The notes: a model not told the origin generated them from the sequence alone. Positions 1,743 to 57,255 are shown, numbered from the stretch's first letter. The stretch is 64,000 nt of DNA from Candidatus Heimdallarchaeum aukensis (GCA_021513695.1 CP084166.1:128001-192000), one strand, 5' to 3'. A program made the numbers and translations.

Positions 1743-2170
1743 TTATCTTCGTCTAAAGAGTTTTCTCCAAAATAAAATCTTAGTTTTAAGATTAATACTA
1801 CACATTGGCTCTTTTTCTATAATTTTTAATTCAAGGAGATCTTTATCAAAAGATTCGAAAATTCCAAGGTCAGAATATCCCCTTCCAATTTCTCCTTCGT
1901 ATTTTTTAATAAATTGTTCATGGAGCAGTAAAAACTATAATTATTCCTCTTTCTTCATCTGTTTTAAAGTATAATTTTAAATTAGTAAAAACTACTTTTT
2001 CTTTACTCTTGTTAACCAAAACTTTCTTTGGAATATGCATATAGAGCAGCTAAAAAGCTAGTTTGAAGGGTGTGATCGGGTCTCATCTTGCAAGTTTTTC
2101 CACCAAAACACTTGCTGTAATAAGGAATTCCACTTTTATCTAAAATAAAAATATCATCTGGTATAATTTT
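1743..2170 (-). pseudogene. Roadblock/longin-like gene disrupted by two frameshifts
   Basis: Three consecutive reverse-strand frames read as one roadblock-like domain: IFILDKSGIPYYSKCFGG...TLQTSFLAALYAYSKESFG* / (V)NKSKEKVVFTNLKLYFKTDEERGIIIVFTAP* / LLHEQFIKKYEGEIGRGYSDLGIFESFDKDLLELKIIEKE...*. Track ORF 2012-2233 covers only the first piece, and its 5' end overlaps the 2154-2702 gene. Confidence 0.4.
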
Positions 2171-2702
2171 CCATTTTCTCTTTTCGTGACTGCTTAGTAA
2201 CATTGCCTTTAGACAAAAGTTCACAAACATCAAGAGGACAATTTAAGCATACTTTAGCATTGTAATCAAATCTTTTTGAAGTAAATATTCTTTTTATGAT
2301 AAAAAAAGCGAATGTTACTGCAATTGGGATAACTATTCGATACCATAGTATCTTGTCAACGAAAGAATAAAAAATGCTTGAAAAAATAATATACATAGAA
2401 GAAGCAGAAGAAAAACCTAACAAAAAGCGTGCTATGTCTTTAATTATTCTTTTCATTTCAAAAAAAACTGTAAAAATTGTTGGAATAAAAGTTAAAATTA
2501 TAATTAATAGCAATGCAGGGACATCTAGAACTTTGTAAAAAGAGAAAGATAGGTAAAAAACTACCCCTATTGCTAATCCTGAATAAAAGTTTGTGCACCC
2601 TCTGCAGATTCTATATCCATTAATTATATATACATGATTAGCAAAAAATGAACAATTAGGGTGATGTGACCAAGTATCTTTATCTTTAGGAAGAAGTTTC
2701 AT
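2154..2702 (-). CDS. Polytopic membrane protein with N-terminal Cys motif (DUF2085-like)
   Basis: HHPNCSFFANHVYIINGYRICRGCTNFYSGLAIG matches the H..RSF...G...CxRCxGxY pattern of DUF2085 membrane proteins. It is followed by 4-5 hydrophobic helices and a C-terminal CLNCPLDVC. Confidence 0.6.
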   Translation of the reverse strand: MKLLPKDKDTWSHHPNCSFFANHVYIINGYRICRGCTNFYSGLAIGVVFYLSFSFYKVLDVPALLLIIILTFIPTIFTVFFEMKRIIKDIARFLLGFSSASSMYIIFSSIFYSFVDKILWYRIVIPIAVTFAFFIIKRIFTSKRFDYNAKVCLNCPLDVCELLSKGNVTKQSRKEKMENYTR

Positions 2703-3187: not shown

Positions 3188-3298
3188 ACATAAAAATCTT
3201 TATTCTTCAATGTCTTACTAATATTCTTAAATTCTTTTATTAAATAAATAATAAATAATTTGCATATATTTATTAATGTCTGTTTAAAATTCACCTTT

Positions 3299-20251: not shown

Positions 20252-20335
20252 CAAATATCAAAATATACTAGACTGAAAACTATAAAAAGACTTTGTTAAT
20301 GCATAATGAAAAAGAAAAATTAATTGTTCTTGAAA

Positions 20336-29045: not shown

Positions 29046-29169
29046 ACCAATCTCCCATCGGATATGCCTTTTTTTGAACACTTTAAAATTTTCCTCTGTA
29101 AAAATATTTTTTAAATGAATAAATACTTCAAGAAAAGAATTTATATATTGCAAGTTCTTGTTAAGCAAA

Positions 29170-30492
29170 ATGTCCTCAAAAACCTCTAAAGACACAGAAA
29201 AATTAAGAAGTAAACTGAAAGACTTGTTATCAATACCCAGTTCTCTGTTAATAGTTTTTCTGACAACATTGTTAATGAGAGCCAGTTTTTATTTGGCAAT
29301 TGCAATCTTGAATTATCCTCATTATTTAACTCATCTTTCTTCAGTTCAAAAAACATGGATTTTTATTGTTTATCCATTAAGTGAATTATTAACTGTATTA
29401 TTTTTTGGAGTGCTATCTGATAAGATTGGGCGAAAGATTATTTATTACATTGGTCTAGGCACAACTGCGATAGCGATTTTATTATTTTCCTTTGTTTCAG
29501 AATTTGCATTATTATTGGTTGTTTCTTCAATATTGGGAATTGGTGCAGCTGCTCAAGTCGCCTCTACCTTATCTATTGTAGCAGATGAAGCTCCTGAAGA
29601 CAAAAGAGGGCGATTTATGGGTTTTTACGATGCGATGACACTTATAGGTTTAGGTTTAGGATTTGGAGGAGGTTTCCTCATTATGGAAATCTTGTTTGGG
29701 AATGAAGATGTTACGACGATGACTAGTTCCCAGCAAACTGAGTTTTACAAAAGAGTTGCAACAACGAGCGAAGTTCTTTTTGTAATTGCAGCTGTGTTGC
29801 TTTTTATTTCATTAGTAGTAGCAGTGGTATTGTTAAAAGGAAAACAATTTGTAAAATTCGGTAAAGAACAAACAATAAAAGAGAAGGTCAGTTTTATAAT
29901 TAAAGATAAAAATTTACGTTACTTGATGCCTGTTTGGGTACCAATAATCTGTCTTTATGCAATTGTATTGACTAATGCTGAAGAATTAGCTCACACACTG
30001 AACCTACATGACGTCAAACTACTTATCGTTCTTGCAGTTATTTTCGGTTCTATACTGATAGGCTTTCCTCTTAATGGAATATTAAGTGACAAAATAGGAA
30101 GAAAACCTTTTCTGTATATAGGCATGTTCTCTTTTGCCGGATTTGTTACAGTTCTAATAATTGGTGCAGAACAAGCTAAAGTTAACAATCCAAATCTACT
30201 ATTGTATCTATCTCCATTGATGTTTGTTCTAGGTATCGGTTGTGGAGCTTTTCCTCCAGCAGCACTAGCATTGTTAACTGATCTATCTCCAAAAGAAAAT
30301 TATGGGTCAAGTATGGGTGCTTATTCTGTAGTTTATGGAACTGGAATGATTATTGGTCCTCTCTCTGCAGAATATTCACAATCAGTTGGAGGTTTATTTG
30401 GATTAATCATTTTGATTTGGATTCTTTGTGCAATTAGTGTTGTTGGAACATTATTAGTTCCAAAACATCTTTTGAGCAAAGGATCTCATTAG
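29170..30492 (+). CDS. MFS transporter
   Basis: About 12 predicted TM helices. MFS motif A occurs in both halves: GVLSDKIGRKIIYYIGL and GILSDKIGRKPFLYIGM. The track TTG start at 29158 is likely an over-extension; the ATG is at 29170. Confidence 0.85.
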   Translation: MSSKTSKDTEKLRSKLKDLLSIPSSLLIVFLTTLLMRASFYLAIAILNYPHYLTHLSSVQKTWIFIVYPLSELLTVLFFGVLSDKIGRKIIYYIGLGTTAIAILLFSFVSEFALLLVVSSILGIGAAAQVASTLSIVADEAPEDKRGRFMGFYDAMTLIGLGLGFGGGFLIMEILFGNEDVTTMTSSQQTEFYKRVATTSEVLFVIAAVLLFISLVVAVVLLKGKQFVKFGKEQTIKEKVSFIIKDKNLRYLMPVWVPIICLYAIVLTNAEELAHTLNLHDVKLLIVLAVIFGSILIGFPLNGILSDKIGRKPFLYIGMFSFAGFVTVLIIGAEQAKVNNPNLLLYLSPLMFVLGIGCGAFPPAALALLTDLSPKENYGSSMGAYSVVYGTGMIIGPLSAEYSQSVGGLFGLIILIWILCAISVVGTLLVPKHLLSKGSH

Positions 30493-30533: not shown

Positions 30534-31379
30534 TTATTTACTAAAATAAGCCGATTCTTCATTATTTATTTCTAATAGAATCTTAGCCATTTTTGGGAAT
30601 TCTGTAGGAGCTATTAAGCTAGCATTCTGACACCCAGTATTTACTAATATATAGACAAACAAATCAGAATAGTGCGCAATAACCTCTATATTCCCATTGG
30701 TAAAAGCTATTTTGTTTAAGTTTTCTTTTATTAAGATGGAAAATTTGATTTCGTTTAAAATTTTTAAAAGGTAGGTATGATCTGAATAAAAAATATTTGA
30801 AGTTGTTTTATGAAATAATAACTCATTTGTATATCTATCTAAAATAAAAAGATTATAGGGAGTATTTTCTACATATTTATCTACTCTATTGAAAAAATCT
30901 AGTTTCTTTGCTGAGTCAATGTTTAGATTGTAAATTCTTTCTTCTTCTCTTATTTCATAATCTTTTAGCACATCAAGAATCTGCATGAAGGGTTCTTTAA
31001 AGAGTTTTAAAAAGAAAGTACCATCTCCAAATTCACGATTAATTATCTCTTCATTTTCATAATCACTAAAAGTACTTGAAACTAGAAATCTAAAATTTTC
31101 CACTTCTTTTAAAAACACTCTTTCTCCTTTTTCGAATTCAATTCTTGCTACAAGAAAGAAACGATTATTAAAAAAAGGAATGTAAATCAGTCTTTCATCT
31201 CCCGCAATATCTAGGTAATTAATGGTTTTTCCAGTTAACTCAACTGAGAAGGATTGTAAAGCACTCATTAGAGCACCTATTAAATCAGGGTCGATAGGAA
31301 CAGATTTTCTTATTATCGCGTGATTTATTAGAATACCATCATTTGAAACTAACCACATTTCTTTAATCATTTTTTTCAC
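30534..31379 (-). CDS. Tandem roadblock/LC7 (longin-like) domain protein
   Basis: Unit 1: MWLVSNDGILINHAIIRKS..DPDLIGALMSALQSFSVELTGKTINYLDIAGDERLIYIPFFNNRFFLVARIE (a beta-beta-alpha-beta-beta pattern typical of MglB/roadblock). Unit 2: YNLFILDRYTNELLFHKT...YLLKILNEIKFSI...IAFTNGNIEVIAHYSDLFVYILV. The ATG abuts the stop of the upstream GTPase gene. Confidence 0.65.
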   Translation of the reverse strand: MKKMIKEMWLVSNDGILINHAIIRKSVPIDPDLIGALMSALQSFSVELTGKTINYLDIAGDERLIYIPFFNNRFFLVARIEFEKGERVFLKEVENFRFLVSSTFSDYENEEIINREFGDGTFFLKLFKEPFMQILDVLKDYEIREEERIYNLNIDSAKKLDFFNRVDKYVENTPYNLFILDRYTNELLFHKTTSNIFYSDHTYLLKILNEIKFSILIKENLNKIAFTNGNIEVIAHYSDLFVYILVNTGCQNASLIAPTEFPKMAKILLEINNEESAYFSK

Positions 31380-32174
31380 TTATAGTTTTTTTATATATTC
31401 GATTATAGAATTAAAATTATTATTAGTTAGAGAAGAGTATACAATCAGATTTTTCTGTAAGAACGAAATTTCTTCCAGCTTTTTGCTTATTCTTTCAAAG
31501 TTTTTAGTTGTATTTTTAATATCACTTTTTGTTAAAATAAATGACATTCTAAGTTTATTCTCATCTTCAATTTTCTTCAGAATTGCAAAAATTCTTTCAT
31601 ACAAAGATTCTTTGTAGATAAAGCCATAGTCAAGAACAAAAAAGATCGCATCAAAGTTATTTTCGACTTTTTCATTTAGATAATATGAAATCAAATCCAT
31701 ATTTCCGCCAATTTCTGTAATTTTTAATTTTTTTCCAAGGAAATAAAATTGAGATGTGGAAATTCCGATATTATGAAGTTTAGTTCCCAAAAAAGCATTG
31801 TAATTTAATCTGTGAATAATACTCGATTTTCCACATTTACTAAAACCAATTAGTAGAATGTTGAGTTGTTTATTTTCCTTTCTTGAGATTGAATATTGTA
31901 CTTTGAATTGATTTTTTTGTCCAAAAGTAATTTTGGTAGAATATTGACCTAGAATTGAGCCTGTTGATTCAATTATTTTTCCAAAACCATCAAAAATGCT
32001 TATACCAAGAATAAATTCTTCAGGAATTTTTTCTAGGAGTTGAAGGAGAAGTGATTTGATAGATATTTGATTTTGTAAATAAAATGACAATTTGTTATGG
32101 AATTCATTATTTTGAACTATTTGTCTTAGCAACTGTGTGGCAATTGTATCTTCTTTCACGTTTATTAAGTTCAT
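31380..32174 (-). CDS. Divergent Arf/Ras-superfamily small GTPase with ~100-aa N-terminal extension
   Basis: G1 LLIGFSKCGKSS, G3 TEIGGN (compare Arf WDVGGQ), G4 LTKSD (NKxD variant), G5-like YSSL. The N-terminal extension contains LLLQLLEKIPEEFILGISIFDGFGKIIESTG. Confidence 0.7.
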   Translation of the reverse strand: MNLINVKEDTIATQLLRQIVQNNEFHNKLSFYLQNQISIKSLLLQLLEKIPEEFILGISIFDGFGKIIESTGSILGQYSTKITFGQKNQFKVQYSISRKENKQLNILLIGFSKCGKSSIIHRLNYNAFLGTKLHNIGISTSQFYFLGKKLKITEIGGNMDLISYYLNEKVENNFDAIFFVLDYGFIYKESLYERIFAILKKIEDENKLRMSFILTKSDIKNTTKNFERISKKLEEISFLQKNLIVYSSLTNNNFNSIIEYIKKL

Positions 32175-41208: not shown

Positions 41209-42174
41209 CTATTCTCCCAAATTTTTTCTCCAGTTGTAATCTTCTTTTGCTATCAGTGTAACAGCAGAATCTTCTTTTGAATCGATGATTTTTAATTCTG
41301 TATTTTCTATAATCTTCTTTGAAAATTCTAGTATTTTTGGGTACCTTGGCATTATTTCATAAGGTAACCTTTTTCTTGCGTCTCCAACACTCATAAAACC
41401 TTTTACTTCTAGAAAATGAGCTTCTGATCTTAAAAATAATTCAGCAAAAGCTTCTGGTTCGACTAAATTGTAGTTTTCATCTACTAAAGTTAATCTTATA
41501 ACTTTTCTAGTGTTAAGCGAAGGAAGTAATTCAATTGTTTCCATCACTTTGTTCCATAGATTTGAAAAAGAAGGACGAGCAGTTTTTTTGAAACTTTCTT
41601 CAGTAGGGGCAATTAGAGTAACATAGAGTTGAGTAGGAAGAGGGTCAAGTTTCTTCAACATTTCAGGATTAGTGCCATTAGTTACTAGAAAAGTAGTCAT
41701 ATCACGATTGTGGAACTCTTGAATTAATTCTGGTAACAAAGGATAGAAAGTTGGTTCTCCACTTAAAGAAATTGCAGCATGTTTTGGATTGTAAGCTTCT
41801 TCATATAATCTTGGTTCTACTTTTGGATGATTTTTGAATCCTGCAATTAGTCTTCTTTGATGTTCTATCATTTGATCAATAATATATTCCGGTTTGTCAA
41901 CTTTTCCTCTCATTAATTCTTTGTTGTACCATGATGCACTTCTCCAGCAAAAAACACATTTTAGATTACACCATATTGTTGCAGGAGTACATTGAAGACA
42001 ACGGTGAGAAGCTATTCCGTAAAATTGTTGTTTATAGCAAAAACCTTCTCCTTTTAACGCGTGCTTTAACCAGGTGCAAATTTTTACTGCAGAGTGATTA
42101 CCAGCTATTCTGTACTGTTGTTTTTCTAGTTTGTCTTTCAATTTTGGAGGAATAATGTTTGTATTTAAACTCAT
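41209..42174 (-). CDS. taw1: tRNA 4-demethylwyosine synthase Taw1 (archaeal TYW1, radical SAM), intact copy
   Basis: GNHSAVKICTWLKHALKGEGFCYKQQFYGIASHRCLQCTP followed by the radical SAM cluster CNLKCVFCWR. The protein is 321 aa. Confidence 0.9.
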   Translation of the reverse strand: MSLNTNIIPPKLKDKLEKQQYRIAGNHSAVKICTWLKHALKGEGFCYKQQFYGIASHRCLQCTPATIWCNLKCVFCWRSASWYNKELMRGKVDKPEYIIDQMIEHQRRLIAGFKNHPKVEPRLYEEAYNPKHAAISLSGEPTFYPLLPELIQEFHNRDMTTFLVTNGTNPEMLKKLDPLPTQLYVTLIAPTEESFKKTARPSFSNLWNKVMETIELLPSLNTRKVIRLTLVDENYNLVEPEAFAELFLRSEAHFLEVKGFMSVGDARKRLPYEIMPRYPKILEFSKKIIENTELKIIDSKEDSAVTLIAKEDYNWRKNLGE

Positions 42175-42301
42175 TAGATTTACTTATTTTTCTTTATTTT
42201 TAGACTTTATCTTTATTGAAATTTTTTTTGATTAAATTTACTATAAAATTAACAAAGGAAAACAATAGATTAAAATATTTAAAAAATTAAAATATACTGA
42301 T

Positions 42302-43417
42302 ATGGTTAGTATTAAAAAAGTTCTCAAGCAACTAGAAGATTCTGATCCTATAGTTCGAAGAGATGCAATACTTACTCTTGGAGAACTAAAAGACGAAAAA
42401 GGGGTTGATCCTTTAATTAAGTGTGTTCAACAAGAAATAAAAGAAAATAGAATCACCGCTATTGTTGCACTTTCAGATATTGGAGATCATAGGGCTATTG
42501 AAATATTAATCTACTGTTTAATGGATGATGATGAAGAAATAAGACTTGCTGCTGCTCGAGCTTTAGGACGATTTACTTCTCCTCAAGCTATCACTACTTT
42601 ACTTGTTTCATTAAAAAAAGACCCAAGTGTGAGAGTTAAGAGTCGTGCAGCTCTATCTTTAGGGAGTATTGGTTCAGAACTGCCTGTTGAAGAATTACTT
42701 AAAGAATCTAAATTAGAACACCCAACCACTCTTCTTTATTCTATAAATTCTGCTTTGACAATGATAGCAAAGAAAAATGGTTATAGTTCAGTAGATGAAC
42801 TTGTTCAAAAAATAAGGGCTAAAAAGGCAGAAGTAGATGAGAAAACACCAGAGCATAAACAAATTCAGGAGAAAGAAGAGCTCGAATCTTTTCCTCGTTT
42901 ATATGACTACATTAGAAAATATGTAGCTCGAGAACTAGAAGGGGTACAAACAGTATTAAGTATTAACTCAGATGAAAAGACTGCATCAAAGAAAATAGCT
43001 GATATTTTAGCAGAAAAATTCTGGAAATTTGCTGAATGGATCGGAAAAAGAATGGGACATAAATTAACTGAATATCAATCTGATTTGCTCTGGCAGATGA
43101 TATGGGATACATCAAGGCCAATTAGAAATGAAATTTACCAAATGATAAGAGATCATCGCTCAGAATTAGAGGAATTAAATCGATTCCAGAAATGGCTCAA
43201 CAAAATAGAAGAACAAAAAGAAGAAGAAATCGTTAAAGATATTGAAAGAAGCAGACCTAAACCCATTATTCAAACTTCAAATAATGTGAAAAAAGACGAA
43301 GCAGAGACAATTAGAGCTGCAGATTTGGCAAGAAGTATTTCTTCAAATCTTGAAGAAATAATGGGCAAATATTCTAGTTGGAAAACAAGAGAGTTAAAAG
43401 ATGAAGAAGATTATTAA
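42302..43417 (+). CDS. HEAT-repeat (PBS-lyase type) protein with C-terminal charged coiled-coil region, copy A
   Basis: LEDSDPIVRRDAILTLGELKDEKGVDPLI, IGDHRAIEILIYCLMDDDEEIRLAAARALGRF, KKDPSVRVKSRAALSLGSIG. Confidence 0.7.
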   Translation: MVSIKKVLKQLEDSDPIVRRDAILTLGELKDEKGVDPLIKCVQQEIKENRITAIVALSDIGDHRAIEILIYCLMDDDEEIRLAAARALGRFTSPQAITTLLVSLKKDPSVRVKSRAALSLGSIGSELPVEELLKESKLEHPTTLLYSINSALTMIAKKNGYSSVDELVQKIRAKKAEVDEKTPEHKQIQEKEELESFPRLYDYIRKYVARELEGVQTVLSINSDEKTASKKIADILAEKFWKFAEWIGKRMGHKLTEYQSDLLWQMIWDTSRPIRNEIYQMIRDHRSELEELNRFQKWLNKIEEQKEEEIVKDIERSRPKPIIQTSNNVKKDEAETIRAADLARSISSNLEEIMGKYSSWKTRELKDEEDY

Positions 43418-43821: not shown

Positions 43822-44629
43822 TTATTCAAACCAATACATAGATGTTTTTTCGAAACATTCTTTTGTTAAATTTTGTGAAAGCTTAAAATAATTAGTAACT
43901 TTTTTATCTATCCTTTTTCTGAAAATCACTGCTTGATTAAAATCTCTATCTGATTTTATCCAGTTTTTTGTAATTTCTTTCATTGTTACCCAGATATCAG
44001 AGGAAGGAAAAGGGATTGGTATCTCTCTAAAAAGGTTTGAAGTTATGTCTCTTACAATAAAACTTTCTACTATAAATTGAACAAATGAGGAGGAAAGATA
44101 ACCAAACAACCCATAAAGGTCTATTTGTTCATCAGGAATTATGATGTCAAAAATGTCGTTTACGTAATAGCCTTCTAGGTCCAAACCAATAAAATACTTC
44201 TTTCCTCTATTTCTACGGACTATTTTTGGTTTTTCAAATATTTGATGATCTCCTGGTGCTCCTAATACTTTTCTGTCATAAATTATTTTTTCTTTTCCTG
44301 GAAAAACTTCAAAGTTTATGACACCTTCTTTGTAATTATTTGAAAAGATATTGTGTCTTACTATTTCTACAGATTTAATTTCATTTGAATATTTCTTTTT
44401 TTTAATATACTTCTCTTTGTATCTCTTTGTTATCGTTAATCCTCGTCTAATAAAAGAATGTTCTTTTAATTTAGGGTAATTATTCAGGATAGTGCTGATT
44501 TCCTTTTGACTTTCAGAACTAAAATTTGAAAAAAGAAAAAGAGGAGGGAAAATGAAGCTATAGTCTATTTTGTGTTCATGATTATCTTTTCTTTTATGAA
44601 ATTTAATGTAATTACTTTCGTTTTTTAAA
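43822..44629 (-). pseudogene. 3' fragment (~268 codons) of the N6-adenine DNA methyltransferase gene, truncated at the duplication junction
   Basis: Identical to 47170-47977. It lacks the start codon, the SAM-binding motif and NPPW. Track ORF 43822-44184 (identical to the last 120 residues of the 663-aa protein except Leu544 read as Met from the TTG start) is only its tail. Confidence 0.8.
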
Positions 44630-45524
44630 AATCGATGATTTTTAATTCTGTATTTTCTATAATCTTCTTTGAAAATTCTAGTATTTTTGGGTACCTTGGC
44701 ATTATTTCATAAGGTAACCTTTTTCTTGCGTCTCCAACACTCATAAAACCTTTTACTTCTAGAAAATGAGCTTCTGATCTTAAAAATAATTCAGCAAAAG
44801 CTTCTGGTTCGACTAAATTGTAGTTTTCATCTACTAAAGTTAATCTTATAACTTTTCTAGTGTTAAGCGAAGGAAGTAATTCAATTGTTTCCATCACTTT
44901 GTTCCATAGATTTGAAAAAGAAGGACGAGCAGTTTTTTTGAAACTTTCTTCAGTAGGGGCAATTAGAGTAACATAGAGTTGAGTAGGAAGAGGGTCAAGT
45001 TTCTTCAACATTTCAGGATTAGTGCCATTAGTTACTAGAAAAGTAGTCATATCACGATTGTGGAACTCTTGAATTAATTCTGGTAACAAAGGATAGAAAG
45101 TTGGTTCTCCACTTAAAGAAATTGCAGCATGTTTTGGATTGTAAGCTTCTTCATATAATCTTGGTTCTACTTTTGGATGATTTTTGAATCCTGCAATTAG
45201 TCTTCTTTGATGTTCTATCATTTGATCAATAATATATTCCGGTTTGTCAACTTTTCCTCTCATTAATTCTTTGTTGTACCATGATGCACTTCTCCAGCAA
45301 AAAACACATTTTAGATTACACCATATTGTTGCAGGAGTACATTGAAGACAACGGTGAGAAGCTATTCCGTAAAATTGTTGTTTATAGCAAAAACCTTCTC
45401 CTTTTAACGCGTGCTTTAACCAGGTGCAAATTTTTACTGCAGAGTGATTACCAGCTATTCTGTACTGTTGTTTTTCTAGTTTGTCTTTCAATTTTGGAGG
45501 AATAATGTTTGTATTTAAACTCAT
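44625..45524 (-). CDS. taw1: Taw1 duplicate, C-terminally truncated at the duplication junction (last 23 residues replaced by Phe-stop)
   Basis: The first 298 residues are identical to 41209-42174. The frame then crosses the junction at 44629|44630 and terminates. It is unknown whether the product is functional. Confidence 0.6.
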   Translation of the reverse strand: MSLNTNIIPPKLKDKLEKQQYRIAGNHSAVKICTWLKHALKGEGFCYKQQFYGIASHRCLQCTPATIWCNLKCVFCWRSASWYNKELMRGKVDKPEYIIDQMIEHQRRLIAGFKNHPKVEPRLYEEAYNPKHAAISLSGEPTFYPLLPELIQEFHNRDMTTFLVTNGTNPEMLKKLDPLPTQLYVTLIAPTEESFKKTARPSFSNLWNKVMETIELLPSLNTRKVIRLTLVDENYNLVEPEAFAELFLRSEAHFLEVKGFMSVGDARKRLPYEIMPRYPKILEFSKKIIENTELKIIDF

Positions 45525-45649
45525 TAGATTTACTTATTTTCTTTATTTTTAGACTTTATCTTTATTGAAATTTTTTTGATTAAATTTACTATAAAATTAA
45601 CAAAGGAAAACAATAGATTAAAATATTTAAAAAATTAAAATATACTGAT

Positions 45650-46765
45650 ATGGTTAGTATTAAAAAAGTTCTCAAGCAACTAGAAGATTCTGATCCTATA
45701 GTTCGAAGAGATGCAATACTTACTCTTGGAGAACTAAAAGACGAAAAAGGGGTTGATCCTTTAATTAAGTGTGTTCAACAAGAAATAAAAGAAAATAGAA
45801 TCACCGCTATTGTTGCACTTTCAGATATTGGAGATCATAGGGCTATTGAAATATTAATCTACTGTTTAATGGATGATGATGAAGAAATAAGACTTGCTGC
45901 TGCTCGAGCTTTAGGACGATTTACTTCTCCTCAAGCTATCACTACTTTACTTGTTTCATTAAAAAAAGACCCAAGTGTGAGAGTTAAGAGTCGTGCAGCT
46001 CTATCTTTAGGGAGTATTGGTTCAGAACTGCCTGTTGAAGAATTACTTAAAGAATCTAAATTAGAACACCCAACCACTCTTCTTTATTCTATAAATTCTG
46101 CTTTGACAATGATAGCAAAGAAAAATGGTTATAGTTCAGTAGATGAACTTGTTCAAAAAATAAGGGCTAAAAAGGCAGAAGTAGATGAGAAAACACCAGA
46201 GCATAAACAAATTCAGGAGAAAGAAGAGCTCGAATCTTTTCCTCGTTTATATGACTACATTAGAAAATATGTAGCTCGAGAACTAGAAGGGGTACAAACA
46301 GTATTAAGTATTAACTCAGATGAAAAGACTGCATCAAAGAAAATAGCTGATATTTTAGCAGAAAAATTCTGGAAATTTGCTGAATGGATCGGAAAAAGAA
46401 TGGGACATAAATTAACTGAATATCAATCTGATTTGCTCTGGCAGATGATATGGGATACATCAAGGCCAATTAGAAATGAAATTTACCAAATGATAAGAGA
46501 TCATCGCTCAGAATTAGAGGAATTAAATCGATTCCAGAAATGGCTCAACAAAATAGAAGAACAAAAAGAAGAAGAAATCGTTAAAGATATTGAAAGAAGC
46601 AGACCTAAACCCATTATTCAAACTTCAAATAATGTGAAAAAAGACGAAGCAGAGACAATTAGAGCTGCAGATTTGGCAAGAAGTATTTCTTCAAATCTTG
46701 AAGAAATAATGGGCAAATATTCTAGTTGGAAAACAAGAGAGTTAAAAGATGAAGAAGATTATTAA
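45650..46765 (+). CDS. HEAT-repeat protein, copy B (identical translation to 42302-43417)
   Basis: The 371-aa translation is identical to copy A. Confidence 0.7.
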   Translation: MVSIKKVLKQLEDSDPIVRRDAILTLGELKDEKGVDPLIKCVQQEIKENRITAIVALSDIGDHRAIEILIYCLMDDDEEIRLAAARALGRFTSPQAITTLLVSLKKDPSVRVKSRAALSLGSIGSELPVEELLKESKLEHPTTLLYSINSALTMIAKKNGYSSVDELVQKIRAKKAEVDEKTPEHKQIQEKEELESFPRLYDYIRKYVARELEGVQTVLSINSDEKTASKKIADILAEKFWKFAEWIGKRMGHKLTEYQSDLLWQMIWDTSRPIRNEIYQMIRDHRSELEELNRFQKWLNKIEEQKEEEIVKDIERSRPKPIIQTSNNVKKDEAETIRAADLARSISSNLEEIMGKYSSWKTRELKDEEDY

Positions 46766-47169: not shown

Positions 47170-49161
47170 TTATTCAAACCAATACATAGATGTTTTTTCG
47201 AAACATTCTTTTGTTAAATTTTGTGAAAGCTTAAAATAATTAGTAACTTTTTTATCTATCCTTTTTCTGAAAATCACTGCTTGATTAAAATCTCTATCTG
47301 ATTTTATCCAGTTTTTTGTAATTTCTTTCATTGTTACCCAGATATCAGAGGAAGGAAAAGGGATTGGTATCTCTCTAAAAAGGTTTGAAGTTATGTCTCT
47401 TACAATAAAACTTTCTACTATAAATTGAACAAATGAGGAGGAAAGATAACCAAACAACCCATAAAGGTCTATTTGTTCATCAGGAATTATGATGTCAAAA
47501 ATGTCGTTTACGTAATAGCCTTCTAGGTCCAAACCAATAAAATACTTCTTTCCTCTATTTCTACGGACTATTTTTGGTTTTTCAAATATTTGATGATCTC
47601 CTGGTGCTCCTAATACTTTTCTGTCATAAATTATTTTTTCTTTTCCTGGAAAAACTTCAAAGTTTATGACACCTTCTTTGTAATTATTTGAAAAGATATT
47701 GTGTCTTACTATTTCTACAGATTTAATTTCATTTGAATATTTCTTTTTTTTAATATACTTCTCTTTGTATCTCTTTGTTATCGTTAATCCTCGTCTAATA
47801 AAAGAATGTTCTTTTAATTTAGGGTAATTATTCAGGATAGTGCTGATTTCCTTTTGACTTTCAGAACTAAAATTTGAAAAAAGAAAAAGAGGAGGGAAAA
47901 TGAAGCTATAGTCTATTTTGTGTTCATGATTATCTTTTCTTTTATGAAATTTAATGTAATTACTTTCGTTTTTTAAATCCATTGATAACAAAAAGAATTC
48001 ATTGGAAACGTCTTTAAAGGAATAATCTAAATCTGTGTAAATTTCTACATCATATCTATTATCTTTGAGGTGTTTTCTCCATTTCTTGCCATAAGTATCA
48101 GTTATGATACCTGAAGGTAATATTAATCCTACTTTCTCTTTGGATAAACTTTCTGCAATGATCAAAAAAGGTAGAGCAAAATTATATTTTCCAAAGATTC
48201 TATTTTTATAAGGTTCTCTCTTTAAGAATTCTTTATATCTATTATTTATTTTTTTATATTCTATCCACGGTGGATTTCCAATAACAAAATCAAAAAATTT
48301 TTTCTGAAGACTTAAACTTTCATCAAAAAATATTTCAGGCAAATCAACAAAAAAGCTAAATTTGGATAGAGAAGGATATTTCTTCGATATTTCATCTCTT
48401 TTTGTTAAACATTCTTTTATATCTTGAAAAGAAATTTCTTTTTTACCAAATATCACTTCTCTTCTTTTTTCACGAAGTATCGCTAAAAGTTTCAAAAAAG
48501 TTGTATTTTTTCTTTCTGACATTTGCTTTATTATTCTTTCATCATAACCAAGAATGCTATCTCCGTATTTTGAGATTAAAGGAAGTAATTTTCTTTTTCT
48601 ATTATCTTGTAACATGAAAAAGAGTTTGAAAACTTGAAATTCATAAATAAATGGATCAACTTCAACTGAATATGGCATAATCTCTTGTTTTTCAAAAGCT
48701 GGGTAGAGAAAATCTCCTATTCCTGAAGAAATATCGATAACTGTTTTAGTTTTTTTAGAATTGTTACTCAAAATATCTAATAAATCATATACCTTTTTAA
48801 CAAGAATCCTATTAGTAAAATATTGACCTGTTAATCTCGTTTTATCTTGAATAAGTGATAAAATATTAACTTCATTTATTGTCTTGATTATATTTTTGAT
48901 TTGTTCAAAAACCCAAACTGGTAACTTTTTTTCTAGAACTCTGAGTTTTTCTAACGATAGAAGTATTTGCTTATCATCTTGATTTAGATTAACCAGATTT
49001 ATTAACGAAGTTTTTTGTTGATTTTGTTCAGATGAAAAGGATGAAGAATTGTAAATAAAGTAAAACTTTACTATCATCGATTTTAATTCATTAACTGAAA
49101 CTTTGTACCTACTAGCCTTTTTCTGAATTCTACTATGTAGATTTTCCTCTTTTATTTCCAT
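47170..49161 (-). CDS. N6-adenine DNA methyltransferase (gamma-class, Eco57I/TaqI-like) with C-terminal target-recognition region
   Basis: Motif order X-I-IV: GQYFTNRILVKKVYDLL, VIDISSGIGDFLY (SAM-binding), FDFVIGNPPWIEYKK (NPPW catalytic). I could not see a PD-(D/E)xK nuclease motif. Confidence 0.85.
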   Translation of the reverse strand: MEIKEENLHSRIQKKASRYKVSVNELKSMIVKFYFIYNSSSFSSEQNQQKTSLINLVNLNQDDKQILLSLEKLRVLEKKLPVWVFEQIKNIIKTINEVNILSLIQDKTRLTGQYFTNRILVKKVYDLLDILSNNSKKTKTVIDISSGIGDFLYPAFEKQEIMPYSVEVDPFIYEFQVFKLFFMLQDNRKRKLLPLISKYGDSILGYDERIIKQMSERKNTTFLKLLAILREKRREVIFGKKEISFQDIKECLTKRDEISKKYPSLSKFSFFVDLPEIFFDESLSLQKKFFDFVIGNPPWIEYKKINNRYKEFLKREPYKNRIFGKYNFALPFLIIAESLSKEKVGLILPSGIITDTYGKKWRKHLKDNRYDVEIYTDLDYSFKDVSNEFFLLSMDLKNESNYIKFHKRKDNHEHKIDYSFIFPPLFLFSNFSSESQKEISTILNNYPKLKEHSFIRRGLTITKRYKEKYIKKKKYSNEIKSVEIVRHNIFSNNYKEGVINFEVFPGKEKIIYDRKVLGAPGDHQIFEKPKIVRRNRGKKYFIGLDLEGYYVNDIFDIIIPDEQIDLYGLFGYLSSSFVQFIVESFIVRDITSNLFREIPIPFPSSDIWVTMKEITKNWIKSDRDFNQAVIFRKRIDKKVTNYFKLSQNLTKECFEKTSMYWFE

Positions 49162-49243: not shown

Positions 49244-51307
49244 ATGTCTCATATATTGAAGCAAAATGTAAAGATACCCAAAGAAATACTCCCATTCTAT
49301 AAATTATTTAATGATTATGAGAAAGAACAATTTCAAAAATTGTCATCTTTAAACCAAATGTCTAATTTAAATGAAATAGGTACATTATTGTTAGATATCT
49401 TTAATAAAGAAATTGAACACACTTCATATTTTATGCTTGCTCTTGGCAGAATATTATATCATACTTCAGATATGTTAAATCTTGAAAATATCTATAAAGA
49501 AACCGATTCTGCTGAAATAGGGTTATGGTACGCTTTCTTGAGAATTATTAGTTCAGACGATGTACGAAAGGAAGAAATTCTATTAGATCAACTGAAAGAA
49601 AAACTAAATTATTCCTTATTGCACCTTCTTTGGACTATTGTTGAGCTTAATTTTTATGTATATTCAGGAAATCAATTTAATTTTAGAGAAACTAAAGATA
49701 TTATAATTAATCGTTTTTTAGTTGAAGATATCGAAAATAGAGAAAAACATAAAGTGATTTTCAAGCTTTTTTATTCATATATTTTAATTATAGAAATAAA
49801 TTTGAATTTTCTACAGAATCACATTTCATATGCTAAAGACCTACTTATCCATGCTTCTGATATTATAGTTACTTTAGAAGATAGGATTTTAGAGTCGATG
49901 CAACTTAGATTATCTGCATTAATTGAGTTAAGAAAAAACAACTTTTCAACAGCTCAACATCTATTTTTACGTTCTCTTGCTCTCGCAGATATGTTAAAAG
50001 AAATAAGATTTGCAATACAAGTTAATTCAGAAATTGGAGACCTATATCTACAGATGGGCCATGTTAAAGATGCAAAATTGTTTTACGATAAATCACTAGA
50101 GCTTTTAAAAAAGCATGTACCTTATGATTCTTCATTGCAAGGCATTCTACTTTCTAAGATTGCTGATTACTATTTTGTGAATGAAAAGTTTCAAAAGTCT
50201 CTAGATTTGCTTGATGAAGCTCTTTCATTCTTTAAAGTAGATAATAATTTTTCATTTCAGATCAAACTCAAATACATTGAATATCTTTTAAATTTGAAAA
50301 AAGTTAATAAAGCAGAATCTTTGTTGGTTTCAAGTTTTCAAAAGAAAGACAATTATCTTTATTTGCAGAATCAGAGTTTTTGCCTGTATTTAAGAGGATT
50401 TATTGAATTTCTTAAGAAGAATTTTGGTAAAGCCCAGTCTTTCCTCTATGAGGCAATAGGGATTGCAGATAGAACAGGAGATGAATGGACCAGTTCAAAA
50501 TCTTTAGTTCTTCTTTTAATTTTGCTTCTTCTAAAGTATAACTTAGCTTCAAAAGTAGACGATATAGTAGAAGCAGACAAGTGTGTAGATGATATAATTA
50601 CATTTTTAGAAGAAAAAGCGAAGTTTAAAGAACTTGCTCAGATATATCTAATTCGAGCTAAGATAAGAAAAATACTTCTCGACTTTGAGACTTCACTTTT
50701 TTTACTGAAAACAGGAGAAAATATAGCTAGACAGTATTATCCTGAACTTATTACTAAATATGAAGAAAATATTGATGAGATTTCTAGACTCTTAAATTTT
50801 GAAAACATTGCAGAGACAGAAACACCCTCCATAGATTTCAAGGAAGATATTGACACAATTTTTCAAATTCTTATCAGACAGACTAAAAAACTTGGTTCTC
50901 CAATAGAAAGTATTACAATAGCCGTACTTATTTTTCATTCAAGCGGTATACCAGTTCGGACTTATCGTTCTGAAGAGCTCTATATTAGTGATGATATGAT
51001 CTTTGGTGGTTTTGTGTCAGCAATAAGACATCTGCTTGATGAATTGTTCTATTCCCAAGAATCAAAGTCTTTAAGTGTTGATCATGGACAGTACAAGCTT
51101 CTAATTGAGTTTTACAAGAATTTATTTTCTATTGTTATTCTTACTGTTCGAGATAGCTTCTTGTTACGCAGAAAGATGCATCAATTAGTTAGTTTTGTAG
51201 CTTCAAAGGATCTGTTCAAAGAGAAATATTTTGGTAAAATTGATGAACTTGCTTTGAGAGACATTGATTCATTTGTTGAGAAGTTGTTTAAAGTCAAAAA
51301 GAATTAG
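49244..51307 (+). CDS. TPR-repeat protein with C-terminal roadblock/longin-like domain (paralogue 1)
   Basis: TPR-like units, for example IGDLYLQMGHVKDAKLFYDKSLELL. The C-terminal ~130 aa are IAVLIFHSSGIPVRTYRSEE..DDMIFGGFVSAIRHLLDELF...GQYKLLIEFYKNLFSIVILTVRDSFLLRRKMHQLVSFV. Confidence 0.7.
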   Translation: MSHILKQNVKIPKEILPFYKLFNDYEKEQFQKLSSLNQMSNLNEIGTLLLDIFNKEIEHTSYFMLALGRILYHTSDMLNLENIYKETDSAEIGLWYAFLRIISSDDVRKEEILLDQLKEKLNYSLLHLLWTIVELNFYVYSGNQFNFRETKDIIINRFLVEDIENREKHKVIFKLFYSYILIIEINLNFLQNHISYAKDLLIHASDIIVTLEDRILESMQLRLSALIELRKNNFSTAQHLFLRSLALADMLKEIRFAIQVNSEIGDLYLQMGHVKDAKLFYDKSLELLKKHVPYDSSLQGILLSKIADYYFVNEKFQKSLDLLDEALSFFKVDNNFSFQIKLKYIEYLLNLKKVNKAESLLVSSFQKKDNYLYLQNQSFCLYLRGFIEFLKKNFGKAQSFLYEAIGIADRTGDEWTSSKSLVLLLILLLLKYNLASKVDDIVEADKCVDDIITFLEEKAKFKELAQIYLIRAKIRKILLDFETSLFLLKTGENIARQYYPELITKYEENIDEISRLLNFENIAETETPSIDFKEDIDTIFQILIRQTKKLGSPIESITIAVLIFHSSGIPVRTYRSEELYISDDMIFGGFVSAIRHLLDELFYSQESKSLSVDHGQYKLLIEFYKNLFSIVILTVRDSFLLRRKMHQLVSFVASKDLFKEKYFGKIDELALRDIDSFVEKLFKVKKN

Positions 51308-51389
51308 TTATTTATGCTCATAAAAAGTTTTTTCTTTTAGACGTAACAAGATAATATTTTTAAGAATAGTAAATATAATGTAAATAAGA

Positions 51390-53474
51390 ATGTCAGTAGT
51401 ATACAGTTTCCCTAGGGAATATAGTCATTATATCCCTCTTTTCACTAGAGAAGAACAAGATTTGATTAACAACTTTTCATCAAAAGTTAATAAAGATACT
51501 TCAATGGGAATCTTGAAAGATATCCTTTTAGATATTTTAGATAATCTTTCTTCCCCTTCTCTCTATTTCTTATACTCACTAGGTAAAGTTTTATTCATTT
51601 CTAGTAATTATAATCTACTTGAAGAACTCAATAAGAAATATAAAAGTGAGAGTTTAGAGCTGTGGTGGGGAAATGCTCTAATAAGGCGAACTGAGAATGA
51701 TAAAGTAATTAATCTCGCTTTGAAAATACTCAACAAGAATCCTGAAGAAAAAATAATTAGATTACATTGTTATGCCCTTTTAGCTAATGCATATGCAAAT
51801 ATGGAAAGTGAAAATCAATATAGACATTATATGCAAGAACTCTATCATGAGTCAATTATCTTTCATAGAGATTTAGATAAAGAAAAAATTGTAATAAATG
51901 ATATCCTTCTTTTTGCACATGCTATTGACATTTGGAAAGAGAGAATATCTGCACCTCTTTTAAAACTTGAAAACAAAATTGATGTAGCTTTTCAAATTGC
52001 AAAAGAACTAGGAGATCGTTATCACCTTGGAAGGTTGTACAACATAAGAGGAGTAATTTACAGATATGTAGGAAGAATCTCTGATTCATTTGAATTTATA
52101 AATAAGGCTATAAATTATTATAAAGCAGTTGGAGCTAGGAGAGGAGTAGCAGCAGCAAAAGCAAATCTTGCAACAATTTATACAATTAAAAATGAACTAG
52201 ATAAAGCCGAGAAATTACTAAAAGAGTCTCTCTCAATTTTTTTGGAAGTAGGTGATTACAAAAATCAATCCTTAATTCACTCTTCTTTAGGTGAAATTGC
52301 TATTGCTAAAGGAGATTATCACTCTGCTTTAGAATTGTATGAAGAATCTGTAAGTATATTGGAGCAAATAAACGCACACGAACTACAAGTTTATTGCTCT
52401 TTAGGCGAATTATATTATTTCTTAGGAAATAAAGAAAAAATGAAAATAATAATGAAATTCCTGCAAGAGACAGACAAAAAGAAAGAAGGATTCGTCTATG
52501 GATATTATAATTTGTTTAAAGCTCTTTTAGAAATTGATAACATGAATTATGGTAAAGCAAATGAATACTTGGAAAAAGCTTTGTCTATAAGTGATACAAG
52601 AGGAACAGGATTTTTCTCTGCAAAAATACTTCTTCAACTGTCATTGATCAACATAAAGCAATATGATTCTTTTCAAGAAAAGGAGTATTTAGAAAAAGCA
52701 AAACAGTACATAAATGATTTAGAACCATTTTATGAAGAGTTGAATAAAACAATTGAACATGTAATAATTCTATTGGTTCTTTCAAAAATATATGCAGTAA
52801 TGGAAGAATATACGAAGTCTTTTAACATTTTACAAAAAGCAAAAGATCGTCTTAATTTGTCAAAGAAAGAAAGAAAAAAGGATAAATATTACCACTTAAT
52901 AGAAAATAGAATTAAAGAACTTGAAGAAATCTTTTCAAAAGCCAAAACCGAAACATCATTCCAAAATGAAACTTTTCAATATGAAATTAAAGAAATGGAA
53001 AGTATAAGCATTAGACAAATATCAGAATATGAAAAAGAATTAAGAACTTCAATATTGGCACTTTTAATAGTACATCCTTCAGGAATACCTTTAATGAATT
53101 ATACGCTCAAGAGGTCTAGTCAATTTAGAGATGAACTAATGTTTGGAGGTTTTATTGTAGCTGTAAAAGACATGATAGAAGAGTTATTCTCTAATCCAAT
53201 GCAGAGTAAAGTAATGGTCATTAGCTATGGTAATAATAAGATAATAATGGAGCACAGTCCAAAGAGAAATTTTAGTGTAATTATTTTATCATCAAAGGAT
53301 AGTTTTATTCTACGAAGAAAAATTCATCGATTAACTCAAAATCTACAAGATATAGAGCTCCCGCAACAGTATATTGGAGAATTGACCCCTAAAACAGCTT
53401 CAAGAATAAATGAAGAAGTAAAAAATGTTTTTGGAGAAAACTTAATGCTATATGAAGGTGCTGTTCATATTTAG
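51390..53474 (+). CDS. TPR-repeat protein with C-terminal roadblock/longin-like domain (paralogue 2)
   Basis: Clear TPRs: LGRLYNIRGVIYRYVGRISDSFEFINKAINYYKAVG, AAAKANLATIYTIKNELDKAEKLLKESLSIF, SSLGEIAIAKGDYHSALELYEESVSI. C-terminus: ILALLIVHPSGIPLMNYTL...DELMFGGFIVAVKDMIEELF...NKIIMEHSPKRNFSVIILSSKDSFILRRKIHRL. It is collinear with 49244-51307. Confidence 0.7.
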   Translation: MSVVYSFPREYSHYIPLFTREEQDLINNFSSKVNKDTSMGILKDILLDILDNLSSPSLYFLYSLGKVLFISSNYNLLEELNKKYKSESLELWWGNALIRRTENDKVINLALKILNKNPEEKIIRLHCYALLANAYANMESENQYRHYMQELYHESIIFHRDLDKEKIVINDILLFAHAIDIWKERISAPLLKLENKIDVAFQIAKELGDRYHLGRLYNIRGVIYRYVGRISDSFEFINKAINYYKAVGARRGVAAAKANLATIYTIKNELDKAEKLLKESLSIFLEVGDYKNQSLIHSSLGEIAIAKGDYHSALELYEESVSILEQINAHELQVYCSLGELYYFLGNKEKMKIIMKFLQETDKKKEGFVYGYYNLFKALLEIDNMNYGKANEYLEKALSISDTRGTGFFSAKILLQLSLINIKQYDSFQEKEYLEKAKQYINDLEPFYEELNKTIEHVIILLVLSKIYAVMEEYTKSFNILQKAKDRLNLSKKERKKDKYYHLIENRIKELEEIFSKAKTETSFQNETFQYEIKEMESISIRQISEYEKELRTSILALLIVHPSGIPLMNYTLKRSSQFRDELMFGGFIVAVKDMIEELFSNPMQSKVMVISYGNNKIIMEHSPKRNFSVIILSSKDSFILRRKIHRLTQNLQDIELPQQYIGELTPKTASRINEEVKNVFGENLMLYEGAVHI

Positions 53475-55809: not shown

Positions 55810-57255
55810 ATGGAGGCCGTCGTCAAAACCTTGAAAGTGAGAATAAAGAATGAGGTATTGACGACAAGGAAGAAGGAAAGGTTAAGGAGAATAACAGGAA
55901 GAGATACGAGAATAATAGAAAAGTATGTGAGAATAATACACCAAAATAGAAAAAAAATATGTATAAGAACTAAAAAAGGGAAAATAAGAGTACATAGAGG
56001 AAAATTAGACGATTTAACATTAACTACTTCAAGAGTAAAAGAAGAAGAGAGGAGAAAGACTTTTCCTCACGACCTTAAGAAAATGTTCCCCTATTGTTCT
56101 CACAATGAGTTTCAAGAGTGTAGAGATATAGCTGTACAACTATATAAACAATGGTATAGACCTAACACCACTCGTCCTCCAATAAAGAGAGCGAGAAGAC
56201 AACTAATTAATGGAAAGAGGTTCATCCTCATCCATCTACCAAAAGAAAAGAATAACACTCTCACTCGTTGGTGGGTAGGAATAAGAGACTCGTTAGACAC
56301 TTGGAAAAGAAATACCCCCTATCATCAGAAGTTGTGGTTACCTTTAGAGATGAGCGATTTCCACCAGAAAGAGTTAAAAAAAGGACAGATAAAAGGTCTA
56401 GAACTGCGATACAAACGTTCTACAAGTGAGTGGTGGGTATATTTTCAACTAAAAGTTCTTCCTCCTTCTTCTTTTCTAAGCGATAATTCCTCTTCTTCTC
56501 TTCCTCCAGCTGTGCTGGGAATAGATCTGGGGATAAACATTCCTGCTGCAGGAGTGTTACTAACCCCTAAAAAGAAGTTAACTATTAAACAGATAAAATT
56601 CTAGTATACCAAACAGTGGAATATAATCAATCATAGATATAAACTCAAACTTTCCCGTCTTCAGAGGAAAGCGGCTTTAAACGACCAGTCGGGTAAAAAA
56701 CACCAAGTTTATCGTTTTCTTGGTCTTCTTCGTCGGAGATATAGAAACGTTAAACTGGCGTATATCCACCAATTTGTAAACGATGTTGTGCGGACAATAG
56801 AGACTTATGCACAAGTGTATGACCTTTTCGTCGTCGTAGGTTATCCTAAACATATCCGTGAAGAGAAAGGAAAAGGGAAAGTTTCTCGTCAATTTCGCAG
56901 AAAACTTCATCAGTGGAACTATGCTCTTGTTCTTGGTCTTCTCCGTCGGGCATTAATATTAAGAGGTTTCGAATCTCACCGTATTCTCACTTTAGACGAA
57001 AGAGGAACATCCTCTCACTGTTCTCGTTGTGGAACGAAAGTCTCTCGCCCTGTCAGAGGGTTAATCTCTTGTTCTTCTTGTAATTACACTTTCCACTCTG
57101 ACCTCACAGGAGCAATGAATATCGCTCGAAGGTTCCTTGGTCATCTTTTCCGTCCTCGTGCAACAACTATTACTGACCACCTTACTGGCTATAAATTCAG
57201 TCTCACCCATTTCACTGTTTGCCAAGGGCTCAGCCATTGGTTGCAGTCCCAGTAG
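55810..57255 (+). pseudogene. tnpB: TnpB-like (IS605 OrfB / RNA-guided nuclease family) gene interrupted by one in-frame TAG
   Basis: Track ORFs 55810-56604 and 56788-57255 are in the same frame. Codons 56605-56787 are also open and read YTKQWNIINHRYKLKLSRLQRKAALNDQSGKKHQVYRFLGLLRRRYRNVKLAYIHQFVND... RuvC-I is GIDLGINIPAAG. The zinc finger is CSRCGTKVSRPVRGLISCSSCNY. RuvC-III is FHSDLTGAMNIARRF. The single stop is TAG at 56602-56604. Confidence 0.8.

Follow-up and report, generated by a model that had tools for sequence, protein, structure and literature searches.

A tandem pair of TPR proteins with a C-terminal longin domain in Candidatus Heimdallarchaeum aukensis: a tentative case for a hetero-oligomeric platform

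Two adjacent genes of Candidatus Heimdallarchaeum aukensis, here called A and B, encode paralogous proteins in which a tetratricopeptide repeat (TPR) solenoid is followed by a C-terminal domain of longin fold with affinity to the Mon1/Fuzzy type, and their arrangement in a tandem array is conserved. The genes lie in a 64,000-nucleotide stretch of the genome (GCA_021513695.1, CP084166.1:128001-192000), which as a whole is referred to as the window. We tentatively propose that A and B form a hetero-oligomeric longin platform with TPR arms that probably regulates or scaffolds a small GTPase, a reading whose chances we place just short of even. Eukaryotic membrane traffic relies centrally on longin/roadblock platforms paired with small GTPases, whose Asgard relatives are relevant to its origin. 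A family of about 690 amino acids (aa) in which a TPR arm carries a C-terminal Mon1/Fuzzy-like longin domain, and which forms arrays of two or three paralogues in Heimdallarchaeota and is present in other Asgard archaea too, has been overlooked by current annotation.

Two collinear TPR proteins and their C-terminal domain

The initial annotation, made from the sequence of the window, described A and B as adjacent, collinear paralogues of 687 and 694 aa on the same strand. Its coordinates are exact (Table 1), and BLASTP aligns the two proteins, whose genes are 82 nt apart, with an E-value of 1e-32 and 26% identity across 422 aa that cover the TPR half and the C-terminus, so that by this alignment the paralogy of A and B lies well above chance level. 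When A, B and their orthologues are aligned (four sequences), collinearity extends over the full length, starting at residue 1. The AT-rich spacer between the genes contains an oligo-T run and a TATA-like TAAATATAAT approximately 15-25 nt upstream of the ATG of B. The TPR repeats that had been noted in both proteins score above the Pfam gathering score, with 34.0 bits for A and 65.1 bits for B against TPR_12 (cut-off 30.1) and 31 and 35.5 bits, respectively, against TPR_2 (cut-off 27). Residues 1-200 of A have no match in Pfam; they match B-type proteins at 1e-6, which indicates weak conservation between the A and B types. A is 100% identical to P0117, by name from a Heimdallarchaeaceae archaeon, and has orthologues at 88% (P0118), 52% (P0119) and 46% identity (P0120). 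B is 100% identical to P0001 from Ca. Heimdallarchaeum aukensis; a search with full-length B returned mostly generic TPR proteins, the only true orthologue being P0002 at 55% identity.

The last ~135 residues of A and B have no match in Pfam or NCBIfam. Conservation is highest in this C-terminal domain, where A and P0119 are 81% identical as compared to 52% overall. Between A and B the identity is 31% across the whole C-terminal region, and 37 positions are invariant in an alignment of five sequences. All three motifs quoted for this region in the initial annotation occur in each protein, namely VLIFHSSGIP in A and LLIVHPSGIP in B, MIFGGFVSAI and LMFGGFIVAV, and SIVILTVRDSFLLRRKMHQL and SVIILSSKDSFILRRKIHRL, respectively. 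An AlphaFold2 (AF2) model based on the five-sequence alignment was discarded for its low predicted local distance difference test score (pLDDT, 49.8). The model used here was generated from an alignment of 70 diverse domain sequences taken from the matches of the exhaustive search described below and reached a pLDDT of 90.5 and a predicted template modelling score (pTM) of 0.85. Its elements follow the order β1-β2-α1-β3-β4-β5-α2-α3 (E11-18, E23-28, H37-54, E60-67, E70-77, E81-87, H92-107 and H121-135 in the numbering of the model), with two C-terminal helices and no N-terminal helix. The ten residues ahead of β1 are coil and those further upstream were modelled with low confidence, so that the absence of the helix applies to the modelled part.

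Roadblock domains are defined by an N-terminal helix, whereas longin domains lack this helix, have an extra C-terminal one and fold as a five-stranded antiparallel sheet in the order β1-β2-α1-β3-β4-β5-α2-α3 (PMC10933270). As the topology of the AF2 model fits this definition, we assign the domain of A and B to the longin rather than the roadblock type. The model has the longin fold in full and resembles solved longin domains as well. The Foldseek comparison that had been suggested as a check placed longin-type folds on top, with best query TM-scores of 0.62-0.64 for TRAPPC1/Bet5 and 0.59 for Fuzzy, and the aligned length was 110-122 residues for longins as compared to 88-101 for roadblocks. 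Thus, of the roadblock/longin-like domain proposed at the outset the longin part stands and the roadblock part does not; the β-β-α-β-β-α pattern read from the sequence came close to the β-β-α-β-β-β-α-α of the model. Consistent with this, A and B have no Pfam match to Roadblock/LC7 (PF03259), the N-terminal helix of which is missing from the model.

At the sequence level the relationship is distant. A search of PDB sequences with a broad family profile found Bet5 (9e-4) and the dynein roadblock protein (2e-3), and the same search with a narrow profile found no match. The isolated domain of A did not match PF19036 (Fuz_longin_1, the first longin domain of FUZ, MON1 and HPS1) at E≤0.01. When the 70 family domains were compared with Pfam, nine matched Fuz_longin_1 (best 6.6e-7), two Sybindin, one Intu_longin_1 and one Robl_LC7; Fuz_longin_1 was also matched by 9 of 43 short and 4 of 52 long family proteins. 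With high confidence, then, we regard the C-terminal domain of A and B as a divergent longin domain of the roadblock/longin superfold that is nearest to the Mon1/Fuzzy type.

Distribution of the domain family and of the gene array

An exhaustive HMMER search with the five-sequence domain profile against 1.84 billion cluster representatives detected at least 150 proteins at E≤1e-3, 17 of them at E≤1e-10. A word-indexed search with the C-terminal domain of B alone as the query returned no match, not even B itself. Architectures were counted for 153 proteins. In 53 of these, which are 600-780 aa long, the domain is C-terminal, as it is in 42 proteins of other lengths; 43 are short proteins of at most 260 aa, five carry the domain at the N-terminus, and ten carry it internally, among them giant proteins with two or three copies. 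Since most of the members of 600-780 aa carry TPR models (TPR_12 in 41 and TPR_MalT in 40 of 52 scanned), we consider the TPR arm with a C-terminal longin domain to be a family of its own. Every member of this class with a named source is from Asgard archaea (Heimdallarchaeota, 'Asgard group archaeon', Candidatus Harpocratesius, Promethearchaeota and Hermodarchaeota), and on the basis of these matches the TPR-longin architecture is widespread among Asgard archaea, not rare. Outside this architecture the longin domain also occurs in Thorarchaeota and, within giant CARDB-containing proteins, in Methanomassiliicoccales.

The giant archaeal proteins P0135, P0137, P0146 and P0208 are 1320-2171 aa long and contain two to three longin copies approximately 505 aa apart. 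In the two that were scanned, P0135 and P0208, a CARDB domain immediately precedes a longin copy, and P0135 also contains DUF5915. The idea that these two are 'Rosetta stone' fusions of TPR-longin modules was dropped, as they carry CARDB and DUF5915, their TPR content does not go beyond a match of P0135 to TPR_2 below threshold, and Methanomassiliicoccales are the source of at least one of them.

The initial annotation did not recognise the fusion as a characterised family, and this view holds: the C-terminus is covered by no Pfam or NCBIfam model, the database names of the 600-780-aa class are solely 'tetratricopeptide repeat protein' or 'hypothetical protein', and neither the ~690-aa TPR-longin architecture nor the array formed by its genes is described in the searchable literature, the asCOG tables being outside that search. 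The A and B genes are not discussed in the paper on the H. aukensis and H. endolithica genomes (PMC8813620). Then again, the kind of protein, an Asgard longin fusion, is already known; Liu et al. (10.1101/2020.10.19.343400) give about 130 longin/roadblock asCOGs in Asgard archaea and describe lineage-specific fusions as common.

Orthologues of A and B stand in tandem on the metagenomic contigs L001 and L003, and a scan in which each GTDB species was represented by one genome yielded 25 loci, all from metagenome-assembled genomes of Heimdall-group Asgard archaea (two labelled 'uncultured archaeon' and one 'Promethearchaeati archaeon') and including the chromosome of Ca. Heimdallarchaeum endolithica. 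Open reading frames (ORFs) of the loci were assigned to types by comparison with A, B and the family profile. Twelve loci have the order A-B-C, in which C encodes a more divergent TPR-longin protein of 672-690 aa, the third paralogue; two contigs start with B-C, and A-B only is present in the window and in L001, L003, L006, L008 and L023. When a decayed C was sought with tblastn behind B, in the window and at the remaining A-B-only loci, A and B were the only matches. A and B are separated by 54-125 nt and B and C by 17-72 nt, and the A-B tandem is on the same strand in every Heimdallarchaeota locus with enough sequence, with the exception of one genome. Other Asgard lineages have single-copy TPR-longin genes (L005, L031, L032 and L033). 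As the single genes of the more distant lineages are of the C-like form, A and B look like Heimdall-specific duplicates.

Further longin/roadblock genes are located a few kb from the single TPR-longin gene in L031 of Harpocratesius (2894-3349 and 4771-5871) and in L032, another Heimdall locus (1311-2378). One of their products is a Robl_LC7 protein, and the family profile that detects A and B also recognises the others, of 366 and 355 aa; this suggests that longin/roadblock genes cluster.

A longin platform with TPR arms, and other readings

We suggest that A and B would be paralogous partners in a single hetero-oligomeric complex, to which C would add another subunit in the genomes that encode it. 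Each subunit would consist of an all-helical TPR solenoid of approximately 530 aa followed by a single C-terminal longin domain. The longin domains of A and B would pair via helix α1 and the edge strand, as those of the well-studied longin/roadblock platforms all do, that of C possibly pairing too, and together would form a two-lobed platform for binding of a small GTPase, while the pair of TPR arms would bring in additional partners.

The well-studied longin/roadblock platforms are dimers, and mostly dimers of paralogues (Mon1-Ccz1, Fuz-Intu, Bet5-Trs23, LAMTOR2/3). Among Asgard proteins, the PDB title of 8yqg describes the structure of a dimeric Lokiarchaeota longin domain. The A-B tandem has been kept across lineages in which the A proteins are only 46-57% identical. 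Moreover, the positions that are conserved within the A and within the B orthologues yet differ between the two map mainly to α1, β3-β4 and α2, and α1 and β3-β4 form the canonical longin dimer edge. Because known platforms dimerise, as does the 8yqg domain, and because the tandem is retained and A/B-specific residues lie at α1 and β3-β4, we consider pairing of A with B a reasonable expectation, the chances of which are about even.

Is a small GTPase the client of such a platform? Mon1-Ccz1, Fuzzy-Inturned, TRAPP Bet5-Trs23 and Ragulator are all two-lobed platforms that bind a small GTPase. Within the window, the GTPase gene of the two-gene unit at 30534-32174 on the minus strand is located directly upstream of, and abuts, the gene for a 281-aa protein. 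The translated GTPase shows the P-loop GFSKCGKS and the sequence TKSD. In the initial annotation, the C-termini of A and B followed the same pattern as roadblock proteins elsewhere in the window. Their homology to the N-terminal domain of the protein encoded beside this Arf-like GTPase is borne out by the broad family profile, which detects A (E=1.9e-37), B (6.2e-37), the N-terminus of the 281-aa protein (2.3e-9) and a decayed copy (6.8e-10). The link to the 281-aa protein comes from the broadened profile only, as hhalign comparison of the narrow profile with the 281-aa and 264-aa proteins gave no significant result; the match of the 281-aa protein to Pfam Robl_LC7 (E=0.0036) is below the cut-off. 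Where five roadblock-like units had been counted in the window, the broad profile supports four, since it significantly detected neither the N-terminal extension of the 264-aa GTPase nor the second half of the 281-aa protein. By eye, this second half resembles another such domain. As the nearest relatives of the A/B domain are Mon1, Fuzzy and TRAPP and the same family adjoins an Arf-like GTPase gene in the window, a GTPase-related role of A and B appears possible, if somewhat doubtful.

If there is such a role, of what kind might it be? In A and B the turn between β1 and β2 carries an invariant S-G-I-P, that is G-x-P, the proline of which is variable in the wider family. Longin GTPase-activating proteins (GAPs) of the FLCN, NPRL2 and SMCR8 type have a GP motif just ahead of β2 and a conserved catalytic arginine finger (PMC12290439). 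The S-G-I-P turn before β2 recalls this GP motif. The β3-β4 hairpin, which we take to be the site of the arginine finger in longin GAPs, contains a conserved G-x-x-K in place of an arginine in A and B, and the β4-β5 loop is basic and variable. Since the motif is G-x-P and not GP, its proline varies in the family and no conserved arginine finger is visible in the alignments, a GAP role seems less likely, and an activity as a guanine nucleotide exchange factor (GEF) or as a scaffold looks more likely.

A and B differ from each of the known systems that they resemble. Mon1-Ccz1, Fuzzy-Inturned (CPLANE) and HPS1-HPS4 (BLOC-3) are tri-longin Rab GEF heterodimers with three longin domains per subunit, those of the Mon1-Ccz1 type dimerising through the first of the three, whereas the family profile finds one each in A and B, located C-terminally after a TPR solenoid of ~530 aa, and the remainder of either protein is TPR or helical; furthermore, A and B are archaeal and fall below the Pfam model. 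The TRAPP longins Bet5/TRAPPC1 and Trs23/TRAPPC4 are small, stand-alone proteins that are flanked by Bet3-family proteins and are not fused to TPRs, and no Bet3/TRAPPC3-like gene adjoins A-B. From the Roadblock/LC7 platforms (MglB, LAMTOR2/3 and the Asgard proteins 7f8m, 7yh1 and 9jue) A and B are set apart by two C-terminal helices and the lack of a modelled N-terminal one. With the Asgard longin/roadblock proteins, including the Lokiarchaeota Roadblock-Longin protein 8yqg, they share the superfamily and the phylum-level host group. The trunks of AP, COPI-F and TSET are HEAT/ARM-like and separate polypeptides from the longin-like sigma/mu or zeta/delta subunits, whereas TPR arm and longin are fused in A and B; the resemblance to these adaptor and coat cores is one of design only, the link in sequence being a weak match of one family member to Clat_adaptor_s (0.062). 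For the AP/COPI-F/TSET heterotetramers, an ancestor with a 'half-adaptor' arrangement has been proposed. It is conceivable, and in our estimation very improbable, that the array is a prokaryotic solenoid-plus-longin hetero-oligomer that pre-figures the eukaryotic design, either as a single-longin precursor of Mon1-Ccz1/CPLANE/BLOC-3 or as a fused 'half-adaptor' of two paralogues with solenoid arm and longin.

Several observations weigh against the platform reading. As full-length proteins, A and B match none of the Pfam longin/roadblock models at E≤1, and the domain alignments contain no conserved arginine finger of the longin-GAP type. In the five loci that were checked with Pfam (L001, L003, L005, L010 and L016) there is no GTPase gene within ~7-8 kb of the array. 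One genome splits A (L020) from B-C (L029) onto separate contigs, and in most Heimdallarchaeota the third paralogue C follows B; with three paralogues A-B-C in most of these genomes, the strict obligate A-B heterodimer of the initial annotation is too narrow. Finally, the domain family is also fused to a response-regulator receiver and to PAS-HisKA, and in short proteins follows N-terminal hydrophobic stretches that resemble membrane anchors, all of which suggests general signalling roles.

The tandem might reflect nothing but duplication history, A and B being independent paralogues that act as homodimers or alone and with different partners. The size of the array varies accordingly (A-B in 6 places, A-B-C in 12 loci, and in 2 cases B-C without A on the same contig), the genes of the other lineages L005, L031, L032 and L033 are single, and the solved Asgard roadblock/longin domains are homodimeric by their PDB titles (9jue, 9jq8 and 8yqg). 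Such independence would not readily explain, however, why A and B have been kept side by side, with short intergenic gaps, while A diverged to 46-57% identity among lineages, and the best-studied eukaryotic platforms pair two paralogues. We hold independence of A and B to be rather unlikely.

A second alternative is that the longin domain, unrelated to small GTPases, serves as a sensor or adaptor module in prokaryotic signal transduction generally, or as an adaptor associated with membranes, and that the TPR arms bind a ligand or protein as in MalT-type sensors. The receiver-longin fusion P0246 (Response_reg 1.4e-9), the PAS-HisKA protein and the short proteins with anchor-like N-termini are what would be expected of such an adaptor, as are the TPR_MalT matches in 40 of 52 family proteins and the array without a GTPase neighbour in the checked loci; many Asgard fusions of longin with two-component domains are also reported by Liu et al. 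(10.1101/2020.10.19.343400). Then again, the nearest relatives in both sequence and structure are the GTPase-platform longins Mon1, Fuzzy and TRAPP, and the same family adjoins a GTPase gene in the window, which makes a purely signalling function rather improbable. If the family has no such GTPase role, it still shows other functions of longins in archaea. In either case A and B offer a small, expressible pair with which to ask whether heteromeric longin platforms exist in Asgard archaea, which GTPases they bind, and whether they act as GEF, GAP or scaffold.

The divergent neighbour of A encodes an Eco57I-type N6-adenine methyltransferase with the motifs DISSGIG and NPPW, separated from A by 82 nt. 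Of the 19 Heimdallarchaeota loci in which the sequence extends 2.5 kb or more upstream of A, 18 have an orthologue of this enzyme immediately ahead of A and in the opposite orientation (L001, L006-L011, L013, L015, L016, L018, L020 and L022-L027), and methyltransferases are also found beside or near the single TPR-longin genes of L033 (MmeI/Eco57I type), L005 (Eco57I type, 3.4 kb off) and L031 (Methyltransf_10, weak Eco57I). That the two kinds of gene form one module, for example an epigenetic or defence-like one, is nevertheless highly unlikely, as the enzymes of L031 and L033 show no detectable kinship with the Heimdall one, L003 and L032 are without a methyltransferase, no nuclease or other effector domain is present, and inherited synteny could account for the pattern inside Heimdallarchaeota. 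A defence-system reading was rejected with PADLOC, in which A, B and C match a generic 'TPR' model weakly (2e-4 to 4.5e-4) and the methylase gives ordinary type II methyltransferase matches.

Coordinates and other features of the window

Table 1. Positions of A, B and related features, counted from the first nucleotide of the window
Feature	Position	Strand	Basis or details
Gene A, TPR-longin protein, 687 aa	49244..51307	+	ORF
Gene B, TPR-longin protein, 694 aa, paralogue of A	51390..53474	+	ORF
TPR solenoid of A, ~aa 201-530	49844..50833	+	Pfam TPR_12/TPR_2/TPR_MalT at aa 218-411; alignment with B, E=1e-32
TPR solenoid of B, ~aa 194-530	51969..52979	+	Pfam TPR_12, TPR_2, TPR_10, TPR_8, TPR_MalT at aa 215-355
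A-B spacer, 82 nt, AT-rich	51308..51389	+	Read from sequence
C-terminal longin domain of A (predicted), aa 558-682	50915..51289	+	β1 558-565, β2 570-575, α1 584-601, β3 607-614, β4 617-624, β5 628-634, α2 639-654, α3 668-682
C-terminal longin domain of B (predicted), aa 552-686	53043..53447	+	Broad family profile, E=6.2e-37
281-aa protein, N-terminal longin-family domain at aa 3-81 (nt 31137-31373)	30534..31379	-	Family profile, E=2.3e-9
264-aa Arf-like small GTPase, N-terminal extension of ~95 aa	31380..32174	-	Pfam Arf 8.9e-7, 29 bits (cut-off 22.3)
Pseudogene of a stand-alone longin domain	~1886..2176	-	Family profile, iE 6.8e-10, profile positions 2-93, several in-frame stop codons
Eco57I-type N6-adenine methyltransferase, 663 aa, with TaqI_C specificity domain	47170..49161	-	Pfam Eco57I 3.3e-14, TaqI_C 1.6e-8

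Upstream of A, a block of ~3.4 kb is duplicated (41209-43417 and 44625-46765, and also 43822-44184 and 47170-47532). It comprises a Tyw1/Taw1-like radical SAM gene and a gene for a 371-aa HEAT-repeat protein, the proteins being identical where both copies exist; the second copy of the radical SAM gene is truncated, with 299 aa as compared to 321 aa, and a copy of the C-terminus of the methyltransferase sits between the duplicated blocks. The block is single-copy at the locus of Ca. H. endolithica (L006), and its duplication in the window is either recent or an assembly artefact. Downstream of B, a TnpB/IS200-IS605-like ORF at 55810-57255 (+), identified by eye, is present in two pieces of 264 and 155 aa. 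As the genes flanking it are adjacent in L006, it is an insertion specific to this genome.

As judged from the translations, the window further contains two paralogous cassettes, at 3260-9333 (+) and 23032-29195 (-), each with a large membrane protein (1439 and 1474 aa, respectively) followed by a double ABC ATPase (585 and 580 aa). Encoded at 19292-20254 (-) is a low-complexity protein of 320 aa with a high content of proline, glycine and alanine and with a repeated segment (…LQKAPVQQSPAP…GPMGGGGVGPLGGPTASAILEAKAKL…); its N-terminus weakly matches CCDC53, a subunit of the WASH complex, with an E-value (5e-4) below the cut-off.

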